Origin: Eledone cirrhosa
Taxonomy: Eukaryota
Length of the DNA stretch: 64,000 nucleotides
Direction: 5' to 3'
NCBI GenBank assembly: GCA_964016885.1
Contig: OZ024742.1
Coordinates: 177,010,001 to 177,074,000 of the forward strand
This document shows, in pieces, positions 8,205 through 45,000 of the stretch (position 1 is its first letter; every line of letters starts with the position of its first letter). The notes below the pieces were generated by a model. That model had not been told where the DNA came from, did not search any database, and was given only the letters and a program-made list of their open reading frames with translations. The position numbers were made by a program, and so were the translations under genes.

Positions 8205-8712
8205 TCATTGTGTCTGCAAATTCTGCCAATCGGAATGTAGGTACTTCTTCCTTTAAACAGTAGTAAGAAGCTAGATACGCTATATCAAATGCTCGCTCGC
8301 TTTACCTAGGTATGGGGTGCTACTAATTTACCAACGGCATATCAACATACCTACATAACTATATCATGTAATTGTGTTAGTACCTGATAATATCACATTC
8401 GTGCCTATTAATGATGTAGCAATTACATGATCACTAACCAGGTTGTTATTGATATACGTATAATGCAATACAACTATTACGTAAACCTAACATTTGTCTT
8501 GACTTTATTTCCTCTCTATCTATATATATATATATATATGCGTGAGTGTGTGTGTGTATGTGTGTGTGAGTGTATGTATGTATATATATATATATATATA
8601 TATAATGTAGGAGGTGAGTTTTATTGTAGTACAATAAAGCAATGCAGATATCGGATAAGAAGCACTCTACAGTGTGTAGGACTGGAGTATACATAATATA
8701 TAAGATCAAAAG

Positions 8713-10330
8713 ATGGTTAAAAGAGTTCCATGTATTTTATTATGCGCATTTGCCAGCTACTATTCTTCTATTTCGCCTTCACTTCTCAACAATGCTCTAT
8801 CTTTCGCATTTAAATATTCTGACATCACCACAGATACACTTCAGATCATTCTCACCGGACGTAAAACCATCCTAGAGTTCAACAATGAATATAGTATCAG
8901 AGATGATACCTCTAACAACTTGGACATCACAATGGGAGCATCCGATTCATCCCAATTGACAGATTTAATTGGTATCTTTATTTTGAACTCTTTGAGTCGG
9001 AAAATTCCTCAACTTCGCGGTGGAATTTATCGTGATGATGGACACTTTACTATCTTAAATTGCAACATAGTTAACCTTAATATTATTACGAACAATATAC
9101 GTAATCTCTTTAACCAACATAACCTAAAAATTGAATTTGATAACAGCATCAAACTAGCTAATTTCTTGGATGTATCTCTTAATCTTGACACTGGCCTATA
9201 TTACCCTTACCATAAAATCAATGAGAAGCTAAATTATGTTAATTTTAAATCTAACCACCCTACTAATATTAAGAATGCTATAGTTAGTAATATTGGAAAA
9301 AGAATATGTAACCTATCATCTAATAAAAACATCTTTGATGCTAACGCCAATTACTATAATAACGCGCTTTCTAAAGCCGGCTATCCTGATGAAATCAAAT
9401 ATAGTAAAGAAACAAATTCTAGAATATCTTACAGTAGAATAATTAATCATGATCCTTCCAATAACTTTAATAAAAAACCTAGATACAAAAACATAATCTG
9501 GTATAATGCTCCTTTCTCCATCTCTATTAATAATAATATTCCTAAATTATTCTTTAGTGCCTTAAATAAATGCTTCCCTTCCTCACATATCTATAGTAAA
9601 ATATTTAACAAACACACTATAACATTTTCCTATTCGACATCCTCAAACATTTCCAACATTATCTCTAAACACAACAATAAAATACTAAATACTAAATCTC
9701 TTCCTTCCAACACTGACTATCATAATAATAGTAATAGTACTTCCGAGGACATTGTAAACGCTAGGCTAATTTCTGCAAACCCAAATACAACGTCCAACAC
9801 AACTTCGCTAAATGTTCTTAATCCCATTCTAAATCAAGAAAGTATTATTCCTATCGCAAATAACTTCTCCAATTCAATTCCTTCTATAGATAACACTAGG
9901 CCACTCGTTAATAATCTCTCTACTCGCAATTGCAATTGCCCTGTTAAAAATAAATGTCCTCTCAACAACCATTGTCTTGATAAAAACTTAATCTACGAAT
10001 GTAAAGTTATAACTGACACCAATTCCTTCACCTATTTTGGCTCCACTTCCACCTCCTTTAAAGCTCGTCTTTATAATCATCATTCGTCTTTTAAATACCA
10101 ACTTAAAAGAACCAACACGGCTCTCTGAGAACTCATATGAACCTTGAAAGACACAAATATTAAATATAACATCTCTTGGAAAAAGGTTTCTTCTGCTTCT
10201 TGAACAGTTCTCTATCCAAGACTTGCAATCTCTGTCTAAATGAAAAATTTACCATTAATTCTAATTTAGATTCTATAATAAATAGACGCACTGACTTGTT
10301 TTCTCTCTGCTTGCATACATTCCACAGAAC
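8713..10330 (+). pseudogene. PLE reverse transcriptase plus GIY-YIG endonuclease (471 aa ORF, then stops)
   Basis: ITMGASDS, GIYRDDG, NFLDVSLNL, YVNFKSNHP, IIWYNAPFS, KIFNKHT, CNCPVKNKCPLNNHCL, LIYECKV, YFGSTSTSFKARLYNHHSSF, and downstream CNLCLNEK. Confidence 0.9.
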
Positions 10331-11239
10331 ATTCCATAAAGTATACAGCTAATATCCAATACTTTATCAGTTTAGAATCCTTTTCTCAAAGGCACATATA
10401 TATGTATTTATACTTCTTTAAAAATATACCCATCTTTCTAACTTATTTCAAAGTTATTTATTATACATTATATAATACTTGTTACTCATTCTATAACACT
10501 CCTATTTATAACTTCCCTTTCTTCCTTTTCCTTTTCTTTTCTTTTTCTTTTAATTTCTAACCCCTAATCTGTACCTTTTCTCACTGTGCCTAACATAGAG
10601 ACAATTATTACACAATACAATATATTCTTACTTTATATCACCTTGAAAAAATCCTTCGTAAACATAAACATTTTTTTGACGTTAGATTATTCATCTTCAA
10701 TTCATTATTTTTTTCTCACTTTCATGTTTCATCCTTTCTTCTACTTTTTTCACAATATATCCTTACTCACATTACCTTTGCTATTTTTAATATTACATAT
10801 CAACATTTTCTTTCCATCGCACATATTATTGAACACTTAAATATTATTCTTAATACATATTAACAATTTCTTTTCATTGCACATATTATTAAACCCTTCA
10901 ATATACAAAACTTAACTTTACATTATTTTTCGCTTCGTTAATTTTCAAATTCTTTTAATTTATACATTATCTTCCAACGATTTTTCAACCTCTCTATGTA
11001 AAACAATATATTTTTCTCAGTTATAAAAGCTATCTCTCTCTATATATCACCCATCTCTCCTCCTATCTCATCCTTCCTCATTATACTCCTCCCCCTCCAC
11101 TTTTTAGTCTCAACTCCTCCCCCCCCCCTCAAACATTTGTTTTCCCCAATATCACACATCAATCTAAAACTACTTTTCATGAGTTGAGTTAAAACTGCCC
11201 TATCCACAAGTGTTTTTTAACCTTCATATCATGTCTTCC

Positions 11240-11310
11240 TATTTTATCTGATGAAAACACAAATATTATTGCATGATGATATTTGTTTTTGAAATGCGCA
11301 TAATAAAATA
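11240..11310 (+). ncRNA. Type-I hammerhead ribozyme of the Naiad pLTR
   Basis: tattttat CTGATGA aaacacaaatat...atatttgttttt GAAA tgcgca TA ataaaata. Stem I is a perfect 8 bp and stem III is palindromic. Confidence 0.85.
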
Positions 11311-11354
11311 CATGGAACTCTTTTAACCGTCTTTTGATCTTATATATTATATAT

Positions 11355-12979: not shown

Positions 12980-14945
12980 CATATCTCATGGCCGCTACGT
13001 CCTGCGAATATTGCTGAAGCAGACGCACGAGGAAGAGCCTGACTTTGGAGATAAAGCTGGACACTTTGAAAAGGAAGGAACAGGGCAAGGTACGTCCGCC
13101 ATAAGTCGTAACTTAGGCCTAGCGCAGTCTACAGTCTGGACTGTTTTAAAAAATAGTGAGGCTGTCCAAAGGGCTGGGGAGAATGCTACGAATATACAGA
13201 GTAAATTGTTGACCAAATATGGGGAGCCTATTATGGATCAAAATTTGGATCGACGACACAAATCGTCAAACTATGCCTCTGTCTTTAAATGTATTCAGTG
13301 AGAAAGCATTGTCCATTATTGACAGGCTCAAGATTGAAATGGGGGTGGAGGACTTTGTATACAAGGCAAGCAAAGGCTGGTTTGATAAGTTCAAACGACG
13401 TTCGAGTCTTCACAACATAAATGTTACAGGTGAGGCTACCAGTTCCGACAAAATTCAAGGCAGTGTTAGAGAAATGCATTGCAGAGAAGGGGTACAGAAA
13501 ATAACAGGTTACTAATTATGATGAAACAGGACTTTATTGGAAAAAGATGAAAAGTAATAATTATATTGACAAGGAGGAGAAAGGTGCGAAGGGGTTCAAA
13601 GCCTCAAAGGACCACGTTACTCTGTTACTTGGAGGGAATGCAGAATGAGATTTAAAGCTAAATCCACTCTGAAACTCCAAGAGCACTCAAGGGTTTACAT
13701 AAGCAATACCTACCAGTGATATGGAAGTCTAATAAGAAGGCATGACTGATTACTTCAATTCACCAGGATCTTTTCTCCTCATATCTGTCTCTAACCCTTA
13801 AGGAATATGCATTAGCTAACGACATTACCAACCGTTTTCTGCTATTAGTGGACAACGCCCCCAGCCACCCACAGGCAATGGAAGACTGGTCAGAAAATAT
13901 TGAGGTTTTGTCCCCCCCCCCCCAACCACCACAGCTCTCATTCAGCCGATTGATCGAGCAGTCATCAAAACATTTAAGGCATACTACCAGCGAGAACCAT
14001 GCAGCAGCTGATAAAGGGCACAGATGGGCCTGACAGGCCCACGATCAGGGAATGGTGGAAATTGTACAACATCAAGCACGGCTTAGACAACATCAATGCA
14101 TCTTGGGAAGAAGTGAAGCAGTCTACCATGAACTTGGCCTGGAAGAATTATGGCCAGCATGTGTGAATGACTTCCAAGGCTTTGCTGAGGACATTGGTGC
14201 GATAAAAAAAAGATATTGTAAATCTCTGCCATAGAGCTGGCTTCGATGGTGTTAATGATGATGATGTGCAAGACCTTTTTGAAAGCCACGCTGAACCACT
14301 CTCCATTGATGAACTCATAGAACTAGACAAGACGATACAGGAGACAGAAAAAGAAGAAGAGGAGGAAGAAGAACCTGTGCGTGGCTTGGACATAACAACT
14401 CTAAGAGAATGTCTCGGGAGTATCGAAACAATATTAGAAACCCTGAAGGAACGTGACCCCAACCCTGCTAGAAGCAGCAAAGTGGCTCAAGACGTCGAGA
14501 AAAGCGTCAAGATTTACCAAGAAATATATGAAGCCAAAATAATCACTGCTAAACAGTCCTTCATCTACTCTTTCTTCAAGCCGCCAGTCACACCTGCCAA
14601 CCGTGCTACAGCTGGCTCTTCAACATCCCCTGCAATCAACGAGTTTGTTGGTTTTGAGTCTCCCACATCACCTTCATCCTCTCCTGCCGACTCAGCCCAA
14701 GATGAGTAAGGACTTAAACCCATACTGTCCCTTAGCCTCGGGAGGGACAAATGAAGAGGCACATCATCTGATGGATTACGCGACATGTATAGGGTACGGT
14801 AAATAAAAAAAAAAACATTATTTCTTTTCTGGAGGGATGACTTTTTCGATGTGCTGGAACGCATCCCTATCTATTTAATGTTATAATGGGTTCTTTATAC
14901 GGTAATTCGATATACGGTAAGGGTTTCTGGAACGAGGACTCACTG
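12980..14945 (+). mobile_element. Tigger/pogo DNA transposon (CENP-B HTH plus DDE), decayed, right TIR present
   Basis: RKSLTLEIKL, LGLAQSTVWTVLKN, FVYKASKGWFDKFKRR, NYDETGLYWK, VDNAPSHP and IQPIDRAVIKTFKAYY. Ends ...gaggactcactg followed by TA. Confidence 0.9.
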
Positions 14946-17900
14946 TATATAAATAAGGGCCCGAATGCCGCCATGTTCGGGCTTAAAGAAGAAAACAAAC
15001 GGGATGAAGTTGCACAGTACCAATCAGCACGATATATAAATACCAGCGAGGCCTTTTGGCGAATTGACCGTTTCTCAATGCACAGAAGATACCCTGCCGT
15101 CCAACACCTTACTGTGCACCTGGAAAACGGCCAAAGAGTGTACTATACAAAACAAACAACTTTTCTGAGGGCTCTGCAACCAAGGAACTCAACTCTTACT
15201 TCATTTTTTCAATTATGTCAAGGCGACGCATTCGATCGCACTTTGCTGTAACCCCAAGTCCCCTCTTTCTTCAAATGGGAAAAGTATTCATGGAAGCCAA
15301 GAATCAAAGGTGAAAGCGTTGATGGTCATCCAGATTTTAACATTGACAGCTGCTTGGCGCGAGTTTACACAGTGCCCCCTATCTACCAAGAATATTACTA
15401 CCTGCGTATGCTTCTCCATGACGTAAGAGGACCAACCACTTTTCAACACCTAAGAACTGTTGATGGCCAAATTTGCGACACGTACAGAGAGGCCTGCCGC
15501 AGGCGTGGACTACTGGAAGATGGTGCTCAGTCGGATGCTACTTTGGAAGAAGCTGTTGTTTCACAAATGCCACACAGCCTTAGGAAGCTTTTTGCTGTCT
15601 TACTGTACATTTGTAAATTGCTCGATCCTTCCTTCTTGTGGTTCAAGTACAGAGGTGACTTCTCTGAGGACTTCAGACATCAAGCACAATTACAACTTCC
15701 TGACATGGAAGTAGGCTTCATAGATGAAATCTACAACAAAACACTTATTGAAATAGAAAATATGATTGCTGCAATGGGTGGGAATGCACTGCAGACATAT
15801 GGCCTGCCCAAACCAACAGAACAGGCTCCGACGTCATTTCAGCAGACATACTTCGGGAACTATCCTACGACACTGACAGCTTGGCTACATATGTCACTGA
15901 ACATGAACCAATGCTGCTGCAGGAACAGGAACGAGCATTTGCTGACTGTGTCCACAGTCGTACGGGAGGAATCTTTTTCTTGGACGCCCCTGGAGGCACA
16001 GGGAAGACTTTTGTCATACGGCTTCTCCTTGCCAAGGTTCGACAACACAGACACAGCACCTGCTGTTGCGTCTTCCGGTATTGCAGCAACCTTACTTCCT
16101 GGGGACAGGACAGTACATTCAGCCTTCAAACTCCCCCTCAATATGACAGCAAATGACACACCCTGGTGTAATATTACCAAAGGATCAGAAAAGGCAGAAC
16201 TGCTTAAAAGGTGTGAACTTATAGTTTGAGACGAATATACCATGGCTCATAAGAGGAGATTTGGAGGCACTGGACCGGACTTTAAGAGACATAAGAGACT
16301 CCCAGGATCCCATGGGAGGCGTGACTGTCCTTTTATCCGGAGATTTCAGACAAATCCTCCCTGTTATTCCCAAAGGAACCAGGGCTGATGCTATTCGAGC
16401 ATGCTTAAAGTCATCTCCTCTTTGGCGTTATATCACAACATTAACGCTCTCTACAAACATGAGAGCTCGGATGCTTGGTGACCAAGTGTCATCAGATTTT
16501 GACACTTGGGAACGGCAAAGTGCCACTTGATGAAGATGAAAAAATCTCCCTTGAACCGTTCTGCACTTTAGTCGACAGTGCTGACGAGATGACAGATGCA
16601 TTTTTCCCTGAGTTGAGCACTAACTACCAAAATCCAAACTGGCTGTGCGAAAGGGCACTACTGGCTCCAAAAAAAGAGAATTGTCGACAAAAATCAACGG
16701 ATACTGCTTAAGTCTCTTCCTACAGCTTCGTGTAATTACAAGTCCATCGACACAGTCACAGACCCCATTAACTACCCTATTGAGTTTCTTAACTCATTGA
16801 ACCCCTCCGGGTTGCCATCTCATCGATTGGAACTTAAGCAAGGATGACCAATTATGCTTTTGATGAATCTAGACCCACCAAAACACTGCAACGGCACCCG
16901 CCTTACAGTAAATAAACTAACGCAAAACTTGATCGAGGCGACGATTCTCTCGGGGTGTGGAAATGGGGAAAATGTTTTTATCCCAAGGATTCGCCTTTGT
17001 CCATCAACATCAGAGATCCCCTTTTGATAATAGGAGGCTCCAGTTTCCAGTTCGTTGTAGTCTCGCTATGACGATAAATAAGTCTCAGGGGCAAACATTG
17101 TCCGTCGCGGGAATAAACCTAGAAGAGCCATGCTTTTCGCACGGTCAGCTATACGTTGGATGTCCCAGAGTAGGAAGCAAAAGAAACCTTTATGCATTTG
17201 CACCATACGGTAAAACCACAAACATTGTGTACCAAGAAGTTCTGTAATCAACACTGCGATACAAACTGTCTTCTAACAATCAAATACCTCGCTGCTTTCA
17301 ACAATTACCAAATTGTAGACATTGCGTCTTTGAAATTGATAACACCATACTTTTCGACTGTAAAAATTGTGACCACTTTGAGCTGCACGGTATTGAAATG
17401 CACGTTCCCCTCTGGTTGGTTGAGTCAGTTTTTAATGGATTCACCAGCGCGTGCTGCAGACGTTGATTCACATGTCTTTGCTGCCGCAGTTGACGCTGTG
17501 TTTCGGTTGATACAGCTCAAAAAGCAGACGTTGACTCACAGTTCTTTGCTGCCGCAGTAGACGCTGTGTTTCGGTTGATGCAGCTCGAGCTGCGGAAGTT
17601 CCCTCAATATTTCTATGCCGCCGTAATGAACGCTGTGGTTCGTTCTCTGCATCTCTTGCAATAGACGTTGCCTTAATATTTGCTTTCTGTCGCATTGAGG
17701 GTTGCGAATCCTTTCTGCACCTCAAGCAGCAGCAGTTGCCCCAGCATTTATTTGCTGCCTCATCGAACGTTGTGTTTCGTTTTCTGCATCTCGTGCAATA
17801 GAAGTTGCTTCAGTATTTTTCTTTTGGCGTAATAATCGCTATTCGTTATTCTCTGTTACTTTTGCAATCGAGGTTGGTGCAGCAATTGTGTTGAGGAATT

Positions 17901-24180: not shown

Positions 24181-26000
24181 TGGTCTTCATCATGAAAACA
24201 GTAGAGACGCGGTATCTGACTACCAAGCAGGACGATACATTAGCAGCAATGAAGCGCATGCATCAAATGGATCCAGACACCAGAAGGAATAACAGATATG
24301 CCTTCAGCCTTGGTGTAGTCGCTCTCTACACCTCGTCCCGACATTGCCGGCCGTCAATATACTAATGGAACGCGTCCAATCCACCGACCTACACTGCTTC
24401 GGGCTCACCACTACTGACATCCACCAACTCCTATCCATCGTCGTCGACAACACCTACTTCGGATTCCTTGACCAAACATACCAACAAACCTCGGGATTAC
24501 CCATGGGATCAAGCCTGTCAGGTGTTCTAGCGATCTCTTACATGGACAACCTCAAGCGCAAGGCACTCAACCCCTGCCACCCCAGCCCCGTAGCCTTTTT
24601 CTCAAGGTACGTGGACGATATCCTCATCCTCACATCTTCCCAAGACACGGCGAACAGAATCTATAAGACGTTCAACAACACGGACGAGAACATTGACTTC
24701 AGTGTTGAACACCCCAACGAAGACGGGTCACTTGCCCTCCTCGACTTCCGAATTAACATCACAGAACAGGGAGGGATCCACTGCAACGTCTACCGAAAGG
24801 CAGCCTGCAGAGACCTGTTCGTTCACTACAAGTCCGCCCTCCCTAACAGTGCCAAAAGAGGATACATCACGAACGAGATCGCGCGAATCAAAAACAGATG
24901 CAGCGATCCCGCGAGTGGTGTCACTCATACCAAACGATTCCTCGAGGTCATGGAGACGAACGGGTACCCTACCTCGCTCACAGACAGAATAGGAGACACC
25001 AGACACAAGAGACAGAGAGGCACCCAAGGCAAGTGCTTCCTTAAAATGCCACACCTGGGCGAGAATACCACCAACGCTATCCGCAAAGCTATACGGACGG
25101 AGGGCCTCAACATCCACCTGGCCCACTCGGGCCCCTCCCTGCGAAGATGCCTCTCCAGGAAACCCGGAAATTCTACTGACGCATGCTCCCTCAGAGACTG
25201 CCCGATACGCCATGCGAACTGTTGCCTAGGCACATACGTCGTGTATAAGATAGAATGTGACAGGTGAAACCAATACTACATAGGTAGCACAATCCGACCT
25301 TTGCACATCCGGATCAAGGGCCTCGTCTTTCCGGAAACACATAAACAAATGCGGAAACAAAGACAGAAGGCCCATTGTCACAATTCTAGCTGAAAGAAAC
25401 GTCGGCACGTTACGTATCAAGGAAGCGCTTTTTATCAAACGCCTGCAACCGCAAATAATCAATCGATCCGAGAGAAGCGAAATGAGATGGCTGGTTTAAG
25501 TTAACAAACGATGCAGCAACACACGCACACACACACACACAAACGAGACAACTACACACGCACACGCACACACACACAGTAGCATTCCACCATACGAACA
25601 TACTACACTGTCAATCCAGAGGAACAAGGCAACAACACACACACACACACACACGCAAGCGAGACAGCAACACACGCACACACATACACAGTAACATTTA
25701 ACAAACAGGCAGAGAATGGACTGACAGCTAGCGCCACCCCACTCCACCATTCGGCTGCTGACCTCTGCCCGACCGACCCCATTTCACGCGCACGCGCGCT
25801 CTGCTGAATACCTCAGATATTCAAAACAACAAACAGCGGAGGACGCGTTTCACACCTTTCCGATAGACAACCTTTGCCCCACCCCGGAAAAAACCCCAGT
25901 TGATGGATGTGAATCCGAAATATATAAGGACAATTAAATCTCTCCTAAGGTATCTCTCTCTCGTGTTGCTATTTTTATTTTATCCTTTATACTCTTTCCT
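24180..26000 (+). mobile_element. Penelope-like retroelement (RT, Cys-rich linker, GIY-YIG) abutting the Helitron
   Basis: VVALYTS, YQQTSGLPMGSSLSGVLA, FSRYVDDI, LALLDFRI, VYRK, VVYKIECDR*NQYYIGSTIRPLHIRI and IKEALFIKRLQPQIIN. Decayed HHR at 25899-25930 (ttgat ggat-gtga-atcc GAAA tata TA). Confidence 0.9.
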
Positions 26001-33774: not shown

Positions 33775-34421
<647 letters not shown>

Positions 34422-38463: not shown

Positions 38464-38556
38464 GTAATAATAATAAATTTGAAGAATAAAATCCAAAGAG
38501 GGCTCGATAACGACAAATATATATCAGATATATAAGAACCGTAGACAAACATTTAA

Positions 38557-38705
38557 TAAAATAACTGATTAAAGTTTAAACAAAGAATCGATGCTTTAAC
38601 CCTTAACGGATTCTTCAGAAACAATCCTCAGAAATAATGAGATTGTTTCTCAAGTTCCCGTTAAGGGTGAAAGCAGCGGTTCTTTGCTTAAACTTTAATC
38701 TGTTA

Positions 38706-38710
<5 letters not shown>
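38557..38710. repeat. Fold-back with two degenerate HHRs on opposite strands
   Basis: Consensus is gttt CTGAAGA a.cc-gttaa-gggt GAAA gca..tgc TT aaac. The plus copy has CTCAAGT and the minus copy has TAAA. Confidence 0.7.
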
Positions 38711-38742
<32 letters not shown>

Positions 38743-38918
38743 CGTAAGATGAGAAAATTATAAAATTATAAAAAAATTTATAAAATTGACTTACTTACTA
38801 AAATATCACTTCCAACTAATTAGTTTCTGGAATGGAGTAAATATATTTTCCGAAGAACATATAGAAAAGCATTCCGTCGTCAGGTCCTCGCTATGCCTAG
38901 AAACTTACATGAAAATAG

Positions 38919-39000
38919 ACTTTCCTGAAGACGGAATGCTTTTCCATATGTTCTTCGGAAAATATATTTACTCCATTCCAGAAACTAATTAGTTGGAAGT
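38919..39000 (+). ncRNA. Type-I hammerhead ribozyme with branched stem II
   Basis: actttc CTGAAGA cggaatg-[ttttcc..ggaaaa]-cattcca GAAA ctaattag TT ggaagt. Confidence 0.8.
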
Positions 39001-39460
39001 GATATTTTAGTAAGTAAGTCAATTTTATAAATTTTTTCATAATTTTATAATTTTCTTATCTTACGTCTCTCATATTATTGTTCTGCAACCCCATGCATTG
39101 AACTACAATGTTACTAAGACAAAACCTATATATTTGCTAGCATTGATATGCATCTGTATGTATATAAATGTTACTAGATATAAATTCTTTATAATTATCT
39201 CCAATTCATTTGTCGAGCAATATTGGCCATGACTGCTGCTATAGTAGTAGGCAGGCCGCTGTCTTATTAACAACTCGCTTTTCACTGATTGACCTCGATG
39301 TCACATGATTGATTCTTTTTGAATTTGCCACAGACGTAGAGGCAGTGATTTTCTCAATGGCTAGGATTTCAGTCCACGCTTCGCTATTTCCTTTCCACTG
39401 AATTATTTTTTAATAAGTTTCCAGAGTCCTCGCTATGCCTAGAAACTTACATGAAAATAG

Positions 39461-39542
39461 ACTTTCCTGACGACGGAATGCTTTTCAATATGTTCTTCGG
39501 AAAATATATTTACTCCATTCCAGAAACTAATTAGTTGGAAGT
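39461..39542 (+). ncRNA. Second tandem copy of the same hammerhead
   Basis: actttc CTGACGA cggaatg...cattcca GAAA ctaattag TT ggaagt. Confidence 0.8.
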
Positions 39543-39720
39543 GATATTTTAGTAAGTAAGTCAATTTTATAAATTTTTTTATAATTTTCTTATCTTACGT
39601 CTCTCATATTATTGTTCTGCAACCCCATGCATTGAACCACAATGTTACTAAGACAAAACCTATATATTTGCTAGCATTGATATGCATCTGTATGTATATA
39701 AATGTTACTAGATATAAATT

Positions 39721-39777
<57 letters not shown>

Positions 39778-39908: not shown

Positions 39909-40198
39909 ATAAAACATTAAAAAAATAATGAATAAAACAATGAAACAGTTCCTTATATTAAACAAAACAAGTTCATTATTTAACGATCGTTTCAAGGACA
40001 TATATGTGTTAGAATTGGCATGAATATTCAAAAGATCTATGTACAAAATTATACAACATTTTGTATAATTTTGTACATAGATCTTTTGAATATGCATGCC
40101 AATTCTAACACATATATGTCCTAGAAACGATTGTTAAATAATGAACTTGTTTTGTTTAATATAAGGAACTGTTTCATTGTTTTATTCATTATTTTTTT

Positions 40199-40208
<10 letters not shown>
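39909..40208. repeat. Near-perfect ~300 bp palindrome (~145 bp arms, small loop)
   Basis: ataaaacattaaaaaaataatg...tgtacaaaattatacaa pairs with ttgtataattttgtaca...cattatttttttaatgttttat. Confidence 0.95.
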
Positions 40209-40252
<44 letters not shown>

Positions 40253-40261
40253 CTGTGTATC

Positions 40262-40950
40262 AGTTACTGCATATTCCGGAAAATATATATATTCACTAGC
40301 TCTGACAGTTGGCAGGTAAACAGTATACGGCACTGGTGTTGCCGTTCTGTTTGAATTCCACCACAAGAGCTAGAATGACCGGGCCATTCTACTTACATGG
40401 CCTGAAAAGGCTTTTTGCATAATTGCAAACGAATCGAATATTATCCTTAATATTCGAAATAATCAGATTTACATTTCCTGTATTCAGCAAAAGGGGAGCG
40501 ATAACTAGGTGTTAGTTATCTAAATATGGCAAAGCTGGCCATTAATCACTCGTATACAGAAACTAACTGACTGGCCAACCTGCTGATATGCAAATCTGGC
40601 TGATCAGTGGGTTTGCTAACATGCAGATGTGTCTGATCAGGCAGTCTGCTAATATGCTAATCAGGCTGATCAGTCACTGTATATTCCAGAAAATGTCACA
40701 TATTTTCACTAGCCCTGACAGTTGGAAGTCGAACAATATACGGTATTGATGAAGGGTAATCACCCAGAAACATTAGTGTTGCCGGTCTGTTTGTATGCCA
40801 ACACAAGAGCAAGAATGAGGAGGCATTCTACTGACATGGCTTAAAGAGGCTGTTTGAATAATTGGAAACGAATTGAACATTATTCTTGTGCCTAAAGTAG
40901 AAACAATTATTAATATTCGAAATACTCAGATTTACATTTCTTGTATTCAG
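40262..40950. repeat. Diverged tandem duplication (~410 bp period) with three 33-bp subrepeats carrying an octamer-like motif
   Basis: atattcc.gaaaat...ttcactagc.ctgacagttgg occurs at ~40270 and ~40681. Subrepeats of ctgctgatatgcaaatctggctgatcag type lie at 40580-40675. Confidence 0.75.
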
Positions 40951-41059
40951 CCATGTGGAACAATAAATCTATGTTATATATACATAAAATTGTTTTGACC
41001 ACAAGAATTTTTGCAAACACCAAATAGCGCTGGAGCCACTTTTTTAACATAAAAACAGT

Positions 41060-41826: not shown

Positions 41827-42099
41827 GTGTGTGTGTGTGTGTGAGAAGATATGTCTATACGTAAATGTGGGGGCTAGATGCTCTATCATGTTAACACTGG
41901 TCTTTGTGTGTGTATGTGTGTGTGTGTGATTTAAGGAACCACTGATTATAGACAAAACACAACCACCAATAAATAATAAATTAGAACTCAACAACCAATT
42001 GTTAACATGATAGAGCACCTAGCCCCACACTTGCATCCCACTCGCACACGCACACGCACGCACACACACACACACACGCGCGCTTACACCACCATCTAT

Positions 42100-45000
42100 T
42101 CTCTCTCACACACACACATAAACACACAAAGACCAGTTTTAACATGATAGAGCATCTAGCCCACACATTTACATATAGACATATCTGGAATATTTTACAT
42201 ATTCTTACTGTTCCATTAATGGATTGTACTTGTAGTTTCCTAACTAGTTGTGTTCTTTCTGTTCCTGTGAAGCGTAGCTTCTCAAGATTTGTATTGAGGC
42301 AATTACTAACATACCCCAGAGCCCCAATAATCACAGGCATAAATCTGAAGGTGTAATCAGGGTGGAGTATCTGCTGATTTCTCATCAGTTCTGCATAAAT
42401 ATTCTCCTTTTAACTAATCTTTGATATTATATTGGTATCTGCTGGGCAGATAATTTCCACTACTGTGCATGTTTTCTTCTCCCTCTCCCATATCATAATA
42501 TCTGGTCTGTTATGCTTGTATTTTATTGGGGTTTTTACTGGAACATTCCACCAGTACTCTTTAATATTATGTACATGGATGTCTTCCGCATTGCTGTAGC
42601 TTTTAATGTGTGTATTACCGGAGCTATCTTTTTTACGAACTGCATTGTACAGTGTTTTGGCCACTACATCATGCCTCATAGGTAGATAGTACCGCGATGA
42701 CATCTTTGGACAGCTGCTGATGACATGGGTGATATCCTCGATGTTAGTTCTGCAGAGTCTGCACTTGTTATCACATCTAGGTGTTTTGCCTGATAACGCT
42801 ATCTCTTATTTGAATCAGGTATTTCGTGTTAATCTCCTGTTCTTGGATTGCAAAAGCGTATCCTTCGAAGTGGGAGCCAATATAGCGGTTATTGGTCCAA
42901 TATAGACTACTTTCCTTATCTATATTACTCTCACTCTGGAGCTTCCTGGCAATATATCCATGCATGATTTTTTACTGATAAGCATGCAGTTTTTCATCCA
43001 TGGATTCACTCCGATACTGCCGAGCAACTTCCCTGGGTGTGAGTTTTTCATTATCATACAGGGAATATCTCTCGAGGAGTTCCTTCCCAACTCTCATGAT
43101 CTTATATGTTTCATGCAGATAGACTTGCTCGAGAAACGGTCTCCTACGCTTCGAAGCTCGTAGAATGTTGTCGGAGAGATATGTTGCGACATTCAAATGT
43201 TGTCTGGACTGATGTTAGGCCTCTGCCTCACAGCTTATGTTTTAAGTAAAGGCGGTCTATGTCACTGTTGATGTGGAAGTTTCCGGTGTTGTTTAGTATT
43301 TTTTGACTTCCAACATCAACTTCTCGGATTTCGTCTATCGTCCAATTGAGAATTCCAAACGTTGGTGTTAGGAGGGCACAGCAAACACATTGTGAGCCAC
43401 TGTTTTGTTTTGCGCAGAGAGTTCCGATGACCAAATCCATTCTTAATCGGGTGTAGTTTTCCCTGGTTACGCGTTCTTTATTACAGATACCATTATAGGA
43501 TATGTTCTCATCTATCCCCAGGTATCTGTAGCGGTCCTTATCAGATATCGGTGAAACAGTTAGGCCATTGATGATAATGTTGCTAGATTGGGTTGTTGTT
43601 TTTCCCCTTGGCCAAACTGCATTGCTATATGCTTTGAGAACGTTGTAACCAGGTCAATATTTTTCTTCATCCCAGCCATGTTCTTGGCATAGAGTTTCAG
43701 ATCGTCCACAAAGAAATTATGGGTTAGGTTCGTATTTCTGTCCTTCTGTGAGCCAATGATGTATCCCTCAGATTTCTTGAGCAGAAAGGACAAGGGGTTT
43801 AATGACAAGATGAATAATATCACAGAGAGACTGTCCCCCTGAAATATAACCCTGCAATATTTTATTTTATCAGTGAAAATAGAGTCCTCCCTCTCTGTCT
43901 TTAACCTTAGGATAGTAGCCCAGGAAGAAGACAGCCTCTCTATGGTTCTGACAGTAATGTCTGGGACTTTAGCAATTTGGAGGGCCTCTATCATCCACAA
44001 GTGGGGAACAGAATCGAAAGCTTTCCTGTAGTCCAACCAGACTGTAGCCATATTCCTCCTAAGTTGTCGCACCTCCGACATCGCAGATTTGTTGATTAGG
44101 AGTTGTTCAGCACATCCCTAAACCCCTTTTTTACCAGCTGCTTGTTCATTTGTGAAGATGTTATTATTTTCACAGTGATCTTGGAGGAATAGGTTCAGGC
44201 TGCATACATCTTATACATCAGGTCCTGGCATGCAATGGGTCGGTCGATATTTGCCATGTGGGTGTCTTTGTTCTTGGGAACCAGTAATGTTTGTGCTAAT
44301 GTCAACCATTCTGGTATAAGTATATCTCCCTTAAGAAATTGTTGGTAGAGGTCAGTAAGATACCTCCGATGGAATATCAGTTTTTTGTACCAGTAGCCGA
44401 CAATCATGTCTCTTCCTGGTGTTTTCTTATCTTGGAGTTTTTCTATCACAGTATCAAGGGTACCCTCACATATTTCGTATTTTTTTGTTGTAGTGTAGGA
44501 GCAATAGTTCTTTCGGGTTTCTCTTAGCCACACTGCATCTTGGTTGAAATTCTTCTTTTCACCCCATATTTTGCTCCAAAAGGAATCTACGTCTTTCTGG
44601 GATGGGGCCTCAGTGACACTTATTATTTTGTCCTTCATATCTCTGAATCTTTTATTAAGCACTATTCTTTCATCTACCTTCTTCAGGTATCGACGTTTTT
44701 CGGTAACAGCTCTCAATTCTTGTTCCAGGGTGATCAGCTTATATTGGAGAGTTCTGGTTCTACTGTTACCAAACATCGTCTCTATTTTATTTTTCACTCT
44801 TTGTTGGTGAGGAGTGAGTTTTTGTTTGTTTGTTTGCATGTAAGGAGTATTGTCACATATCCTATGTTTTTTCGTAGGTCAGCACTCTTTTTTTCTATTT
44901 TAGTTATATATGATGGTATTTTTGGTGGTGTTCTGTTCTTGTTAATATCTCTGCTGTCACCAAGATAATGCTTCACTGTCGTTGCTAGGGTATATAAACA

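Follow-up and report, generated by a model that had tools for sequence, protein, structure and literature searches.

Origin of a hammerhead repeat inside a (TA)n tract

The window analysed here, a 64,000-nt stretch of the Eledone cirrhosa genome, contains a short repeat carrying hammerhead ribozyme motifs, and it raises two questions: what kind of element this is, and how a sequence with no protein of its own came to lie head-to-head within a run of TA. The element is flanked on the left by (TA)13 (38711-38736, from a repeat scan) and on the right by (TA)25.5 (39724-39774), as the initial annotation, which had placed it in (TA)n, would have it. Two arms of opposite orientation lie between these tracts. 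The inverted 5′ arm (38733-38884, minus strand) is 152 nt long and mirrors 38924-39075, corresponding to unit positions 472-542 and 1-81, pairing with it over 152 nt at 97% identity; its 3′ end is the first of two recurrent ends, here called S. The direct arm (38884-39727, plus strand) is 5′-truncated and comprises 1.56 units (unit positions 432-542, 1-542 and 1-199), visible as a direct repeat of 38884-39054 and 39426-39596 with 96% identity; its 3′ end is the second recurrent end, L. The inverted arm had been described as a copy of both the hammerhead and the tail. The entire catalytic core is indeed present and the 5′ strand of stem I is reduced to 1 nt, but the arm ends 81 nt past the cleavage site, without the 118-nt tail borne by the direct arm.

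Two type I hammerheads in the same orientation are found in the direct arm, HHR1 at 38919-39000 (plus strand; C3 38925, GAAA 38981) and HHR2 at 39461-39542 (plus strand; C3 39467, GAAA 39523). Cleavage is predicted after H17 at 38994 and 39536, exactly 542 nt apart and with the triplet GUU, so that the coordinates first proposed hold. The sequence between the two sites (38995-39536, plus strand) is a complete unit of 542 nt with a GC content of 33%. It was reported to be free of open reading frames, and even when circularised its longest stop-free frame is 72 codons and its longest ATG frame 47 aa. The absence of protein coding and a GC content below 50% are features of non-LTR retrozymes; the RT / GIY-YIG ORF of an autonomous EN+ PLE is absent from the element. 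The tail of the first unit (39076-39193, plus strand) runs from site S at 39075 to site L at 39193 and contains two conserved hairpins, while the terminal tail of the direct arm (39610-39727, plus strand) runs from the S site at 39609 to the L end at 39727. A motif scan returned 4 hammerhead matches in the window, compared with a total of 2 across 200 dinucleotide shuffles. An Rfam scan of the window gave no hammerhead family match here, even at E<=1, probably because stem II is so long.

Structure and predicted folding of the hammerhead

The motif consists of the core CUGANGA / GAAA / NUH in type I order with three helices, and the core positions are retained in 77-79 of 79 unselected family copies. 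GUU is among the active NUH sites according to the accessible text of PMC3138052. The extended stem II (39475-39521 in HHR2) had been taken to be branched; it is instead unbranched, a 6-bp helix leading through an internal loop to an apical hairpin. Within the internal loop lies a hypervariable spot (unit positions 492-494; 39486-39488, plus strand, and also 38944-38946), which reads T, C and A in the three copies at this locus. In an alignment of 13 diverse hammerheads 6 of 16 helix pairs are altered on both sides. The 21 cells with two-sided change compare with 8.8 +/- 2.0 in shuffles, and this number and the covariation score were exceeded in 0 of 500 shuffles, whereas the count of pairs was matched by 54 of 500; relatedness inflates such shuffle tests, which related sequences may pass without structure. 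Invariance of the core and of stem III follows from the way the 13 sequences were selected and was not counted.

The G10.1-C11.1 pair that would adjoin the core of a type I hammerhead is replaced by a C.A mismatch in 12 of the 13 aligned variants; other hammerheads of the same genome have U.U or A.A. A C.A at 10.1/11.1 may reduce hammerhead activity. Stem III was rightly described as palindromic, its 3 bp lying inside a perfect 12-nt palindrome. This is predicted to pair between two copies (-9.0 kcal/mol), single-copy pairing being unstable, and so would suit cleavage as a dimer, as described for PLE hammerheads in the accessible text of PMC4209133.

HHR1 of this copy carries an A at position 7 (38929) that is private to it (1 of 79 family hammerheads), C being found in 76 of 79. 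It is predicted to misfold, favouring an alternative fold by 5.5 kcal/mol, and its stem II has a predicted probability of 0.0 whether transcription reads through the inverted arm or begins internally and leaves that arm out; in the read-through RNA a 152-bp hairpin with the inverted arm would capture HHR1. For HHR2 the predicted probability of stem II is 0.69-0.97. Among six other two-hammerhead arms with C at position 7, four are predicted to fold both hammerheads and two score low, so the misfolding of HHR1 is not attributable to the position-7 change alone. Judged by these folding models, this copy is probably a poor source of circles, and the family rather than the locus would be the candidate source. 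Circular folds of four units gave z between -4.9, for the present unit, and -6.5 (30 shuffles each). The two conserved hairpins of the 118-nt tail gave z -2.9, and the first of them is shared with a separate hammerhead family, family D.

A young family within a larger superfamily

A count of genomic copies, which the initial annotation had proposed, was made over 3.0 Gb with motifs whose matches count hammerheads and not insertions: the family 26-mer has 1,843 exact matches and the superfamily-wide 17-mer 13,041, with 0 for the reversed-pattern controls of both. Twenty-five complete family units are 92-100% identical to the present one (median 97.8%). More widely, 58 distinct complete units of 518-571 nt form five clusters at 89% and align along their whole length. 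The 542-nt repeat is a young dispersed family within this superfamily. As in retrozymes, the units are arranged head-to-tail, each with a type I hammerhead, with up to 9 units per arm; 46 of 217 arms carry two or more hammerheads. One satellite-like array of the superfamily, at least 22 kb long and with recurring variant units, was seen at G000:C5:84646038-84668716 (start in L338), and suggests later amplification at the DNA level.

Insertions end at two fixed sites, one on each arm

A set of 150 insertions was compiled from 39 best family matches, 27 best sister matches and 34 plus 50 loci taken by position, overlapping loci and the near-duplicate L145 being left out. Throughout this set the 5′ ends are scattered and the 3′ ends fixed, the latter typically at two sites only, S at +81 and L at +199 nt after the cleavage site. 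The distance between them is 116-118 nt in all six reference units, and 196 of 217 canonical ends meet TA. Where an inverted pair has two canonical ends, one is always S and the other L: this is so in 65 of 65 pairs in the 150 insertions (21 of 21 in the 50 position-sampled loci) and in 17 of 17 pairs from 24 further loci, giving 82 of 82, with 24 inverted pairs that have at least one non-canonical end (22 in the 150 insertions and 2 in the 24 loci) excluded from the count. Single arms in the 150 insertions end at S in 31 cases, at L in 36 and elsewhere in 8, from which about half of the pairs would be expected to have like ends by chance.

The same rule is seen in two autonomous Hydra-type PLE families of this genome (10 of 10 pairs in 33 loci and 4 of 4 in 23 loci) and in the unrelated 459-nt family D (5 of 5 pairs in 17 loci). 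The S and L ends are also repeated in contigs of unrecorded kind from four sequencing runs of one study, perhaps on the assembly's own sample, in which loose ends meet TA at 39075, 39193 and 39609. No LTR-internal-LTR layout was seen in the 150 insertions. The literature searched, mostly outside subscription papers, yielded neither a strict S+L count nor its application to retrozymes.

Truncation at the 5′ end, a fixed 3′ end, an inverted 5′ copy, an optional tail and a microsatellite bias are together the signature of PLE-type insertion. On this genomic evidence the element is best explained as a protein-less, head-to-head hammerhead insertion into (TA)n, likely made by a PLE RT-endonuclease acting in trans, and mobilisation by PLE machinery appears highly probable.

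Nature of the template

Arms of up to 9 units occur and 199 of 217 arms pass through the cleavage site, while this site shows no excess of 5′ ends (2 of 215 arms against an expectation of about 2.8); linear monomers released by cleavage are therefore not the usual template. At five lineage-marking sites, the units of one insertion disagree in 1/67, 0/61, 0/40, 0/40 and 0/51 comparisons, against 36-51% expected, and this concordance across units and across both arms indicates that one haplotype is copied per event. Rare alleles, by contrast with what would single out a circle, are mostly confined to a single unit (172, as against 13 present in all units and 14 partial). A uniform tandem transcript, a circle and a self-jumping monomer are all compatible with the arm data. 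We lean slightly towards a circle, formed by hammerhead cleavage of a tandem transcript followed by ligation; otherwise the template would be an uncleaved, uniform tandem RNA.

In that latter case the same PLE-driven insertion would proceed from a linear transcript, the hammerhead would be dispensable for copying and the 542-nt circle irrelevant. We give this an appreciable probability, well below even. It accounts for the missing peak of 5′ ends at the cleavage site, and a young uniform tandem source would likewise give one haplotype per insertion; the superfamily array on C5, with matches across 22 kb, shows that long tandem sources occur, and hammerhead mutations were without effect on Poseidon insertion in vitro (PMC11167929, accessible text). 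It is harder to square with the compensatory changes in stems I and II and the near-invariant core, which point to selection for a ribozyme, or with the accumulation of coral, mussel and axolotl retrozymes as circles (PMC7229834, accessible text), and lengthening of tandems would be impossible from a linear source alone. Reads joining 39536 to 38995 had been suggested as a means of detecting circles; since the genome has identical sequence at 39536->39537, and tandem copies are numerous, back-splice reads are unable to discriminate between the two.

No A>G over T>C excess of the kind left by A-to-I editing was found in three families (p 0.21, 0.43 and 0.24). One family has a G>A excess (p 0.004, among 18 tests) that is absent from the other families. 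A 587-nt contig from run X4, of unrecorded kind, is a copy of the inverted type with 10 A>G among 26 listed differences, and is given no weight here. Unit position 493 is a hot spot: of 68 comparisons made within insertions, 21 disagree there (8 of 27 loci), as against only 1 of 67 at a site 5 nt away with a 50:50 split; the hot spot recurs in a 522-nt subfamily. RT stops showed no enrichment at the hypervariable spot 492-494 (3 of 136, p 0.2).

A two-primer model for the inverted arms

The S+L rule can be accommodated by a PLE RT-endonuclease that acts in trans and primes once per target strand at two fixed internal RNA sites. The sense RNA would be bound through the hairpins of its 118-nt tail and both strands of (TA)n cut, after which one 3′-OH would prime cDNA synthesis at S and the other at L, on one template or on identical templates; an asymmetric dimer could plausibly carry out the two primings. 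The two cDNAs would then halt at random and their far ends be joined, mostly with 0-10 nt of overlap, and failure of one arm would leave a single-arm insertion.

The inverted arm might instead arise by fold-back or self-priming on an antisense template, with no priming on both target strands, a model proposed for head-to-head PLE copies (PMC3846280, accessible text). The inner junctions of the 65 pairs, of which 13 are flush, 40 overlap by 1-10 nt and 12 have a gap, include in those 40 overlaps what fold-back could yield. Fold-back should, however, reproduce the first arm, whereas inverted arms often contain sequence absent from the other arm; at L005 the direct arm is 107 nt and the inverted arm about 770 nt. 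In addition, S and L arms have medians of 463 and 465 nt with uncorrelated lengths, and S lies on the left in 37 pairs and on the right in 28. Fold-back is consequently considered unlikely, and priming on both strands is preferred.

A more far-reaching form of the two-primer model, offered tentatively and with somewhat less than even confidence, would make PLE integration itself a two-primer reaction, in which an asymmetric RT-endonuclease dimer on one circular RNA uses S on one target strand and L on the other, so that the inverted pLTR and the one-sided tail would stem from a single event; the superfamily would then be a circular RNA parasite that has kept only its ribozyme and tail hairpins, with one stem II position miscopied in reverse transcription.

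The search for a PLE partner

PLEs are plentiful in the genome, with 10,596 GIY-YIG candidates and several Hydra-type families. No homology between the unit and PLE ends was found in 50 GIY-YIG loci, in 35 loci of a first Hydra-type set or in 24 of another Hydra-type family, from a genome with more families than those sampled. Apart from members of the superfamily and variants of family D, searches with tail-hairpin patterns gave isolated matches, few in number and at control level. With no PLE with homologous ends among these, the driver is proposed from the insertion signature alone, and since Hydra- and Neptune-type families of this genome both target TA, it might be of either clade.

A PLE protein match is present in the flank of 33 of 174 insertion loci, and four insertions (L020, L033, L116 and L260) adjoin one without intervening TA. 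The match that abuts L260 has only 25% identity, and L020 and L339 are ambiguous. Three candidate partners were rejected: L033 lies at the short end of a Hydra-type family, and the 3′ ends of that family bear no relation to the unit; L089, at first taken for a PLE whose 3′ end was 76% homologous, has a piece of a sister family beyond about 600 nt of TA; and L082 likewise reflects nesting in a shared TA tract. At L339 (G000:C1:36627000-36635600) 18 nt link a retrozyme arm to the 3′-terminal 1.3 kb of a Hydra-type PLE, and the two outer ends are both L. We read this arrangement as a later nested insertion with deletion; the alternative would be a template switch, which would name the driver.

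Overlooked ORF-bearing copies of a full-length PLE might exist, in which case the present copies would be simply its 3′ ends (pLTR stumps) and the tandems ordinary partial-tandem pLTRs. The architecture is like that of PLE ends, stump-sized PLE palindromes are frequent, one of them immediately to the left of the element, and the 174 insertions examined are drawn from several thousand. In none of these 174, however, is the unit the 3′ end of an ORF-bearing PLE. Every long arm runs, upstream of the hammerhead, into the unit's own tail and never into an ORF, 46 of the 217 arms carry at least two hammerheads, and the four PLE-abutting loci are read as junctions to other families. The whole unit, aligned across the five clusters, is kept in the sister families. 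The non-autonomous status claimed initially, as opposed to a mere 3′ end of a full-length PLE, is thus upheld for these insertions, and the stump explanation is very improbable. Alternatively, the repeat could be of DNA-level origin (satellite, MITE or Helitron fragment), its resemblance to a hammerhead being a relic or due to chance. The missing Rfam match and the one long satellite-like array might speak for this, but it is scarcely credible in view of the fixed 3′ and scattered 5′ ends, the dispersed short insertions and the covarying RNA stems.

Other elements in the window and the genome

The window contains further elements. A 5′-truncated Hydra-type PLE at 8600-11345 (plus strand) has a 474-aa frame with RT and a CxCx5C linker, a hammerhead at 11248 and an inverted 5′ copy that bears the tail; no Pfam match was obtained for it. 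A first look gave 43,409 candidates for this PLE in the genome, with full-length 808-aa frames at L191 and L192. The palindromic stump at 38480-38710 represents the 3′ end of another Hydra-type PLE family, the second in the window, and the retrozyme occupies the TA tract that follows its short end. To the right, a 300-nt palindrome at 39909-40208, with 148-nt arms of 98% identity and TA-rich ends, recurs in 9 fetched loci and looks like another PLE-end stump. It is followed at 40255-40970 (plus strand) by two diverged units, of roughly 440 nt, of another hammerhead repeat that is intact at L061; the core of the second unit is degenerate near 40747 and that of the first is lost. At 33975-34325 a type I hammerhead (C3 34228) lies in a small inverted insertion within TA, matched by 23 fetched loci. 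A PIF1-helicase frame, likely from a Helitron, and two reverse-transcriptase remnants are found at 14206-17800, 24293-25267 and 42002-44970. Elsewhere in the genome, family D (L082:8000-8920, G000:C5:100721999-100722919) has a 459-nt hammerhead unit with a 105-nt tail and about 2,400 first-look candidates, and has only the first tail hairpin motif in common with the 542-nt family.

Comparison with known systems

The published sources are cited here for the parts of their text that are accessible. Circles of 170-400 nt have been shown experimentally for metazoan retrozymes (Cervera and de la Pena 2020, PMC7229834), and retrozyme monomers span 51-972 bp (Li, Clavereau and Pollet 2026, bioRxiv 10.64898/2026.07.22.740005). 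The unit had been thought longer than metazoan retrozymes; at 542 nt it exceeds the former range and falls inside the latter. In Xenopus, 8 of 9 retrozyme dimers remained uncleaved in vitro, and 24 of 57 families have a homologous PLE (bioRxiv 10.64898/2026.07.22.740005), whereas none was found for the 542-nt family among the loci sampled. Movement of retrozymes by PLE machinery has been proposed from co-occurrence and pLTR similarity, with the mechanism described as unresolved (PMC7229834; bioRxiv 10.64898/2026.07.22.740005). Like metazoan non-LTR retrozymes, the present family is low in GC and free of ORFs, carries a type I hammerhead in each head-to-tail unit, is dispersed in thousands of copies from monomers to multimers, has a predicted circle that pairs with itself and co-exists with PLEs. 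Unlike them, it has an extended stem II of 49 nt with a C.A mismatch at the base. Nor did the accessible text on these retrozymes show (TA)n targeting, inverted arms or a pair of fixed PLE-type ends: the word 'tail' is absent from Li 2026 (0 occurrences) and 'inverted' from Cervera 2020 (0 occurrences).

PLEs typically carry a tail at one of their ends and, on the 5′ side, an inverted copy (Craig 2021, PMC8557442). In the Poseidon PLE (PAc) the tail provides two RT start sites, both strands are cleaved and extended, a dimer is predicted and hammerhead cleavage is unnecessary for insertion (Frangieh 2024, PMC11167929). The 542-nt family resembles these EN+ PLEs (Hydra and Neptune, PMC8557442; Poseidon PAc, PMC11167929; Adineta Penelope, PMC3846280) in its 5′ truncation, partial tandems, inverted 5′ copy, optional tail, hammerhead ahead of the 3′ end, (TA)n bias and two fixed ends matching two RT start sites, and differs in that the RT / GIY-YIG ORF is absent from the unit. 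The tail is 118 nt compared with 30-40 nt in published PLEs, the Hydra-type families of this genome having about 85-160 nt. Both ends finish in AUAU/UAUA and could pair with a TA primer, whereas the PAc start site is not homologous to its target (PMC11167929). Where the PLE papers place a tail 'often' or 'optionally' at one end, it is here at exactly one end in all 82 pairs.

These sources already describe retrozymes as non-autonomous PLE derivatives and monomers of up to 972 bp, as well as copies in inverted orientation, tails on one side and a pair of RT start sites. What the present insertions add is a set of scars with the PLE signature, which gives independent genomic support for PLE-driven movement of retrozymes. 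The strict one-short-one-long rule, seen also in autonomous Hydra-type families, turns an oddity of PLEs into a prediction for work in vitro, namely that within one complex each target strand would be extended from a different start site. The class of element is already known, and an ORF-free member of some 540 nt with many natural variants would make a compact test substrate. In being protein-less, multicopy head-to-tail, probably PLE-mobilised and biased to microsatellites the family is like the non-autonomous Chlamys PLEs, for example MRC1 (PMC8557442), and as judged from its genomic copies, with cleavage and circles predicted, it would appear to belong, as a new member, to the animal non-LTR retrozymes, its insertions providing genomic evidence of mobilisation by PLEs.
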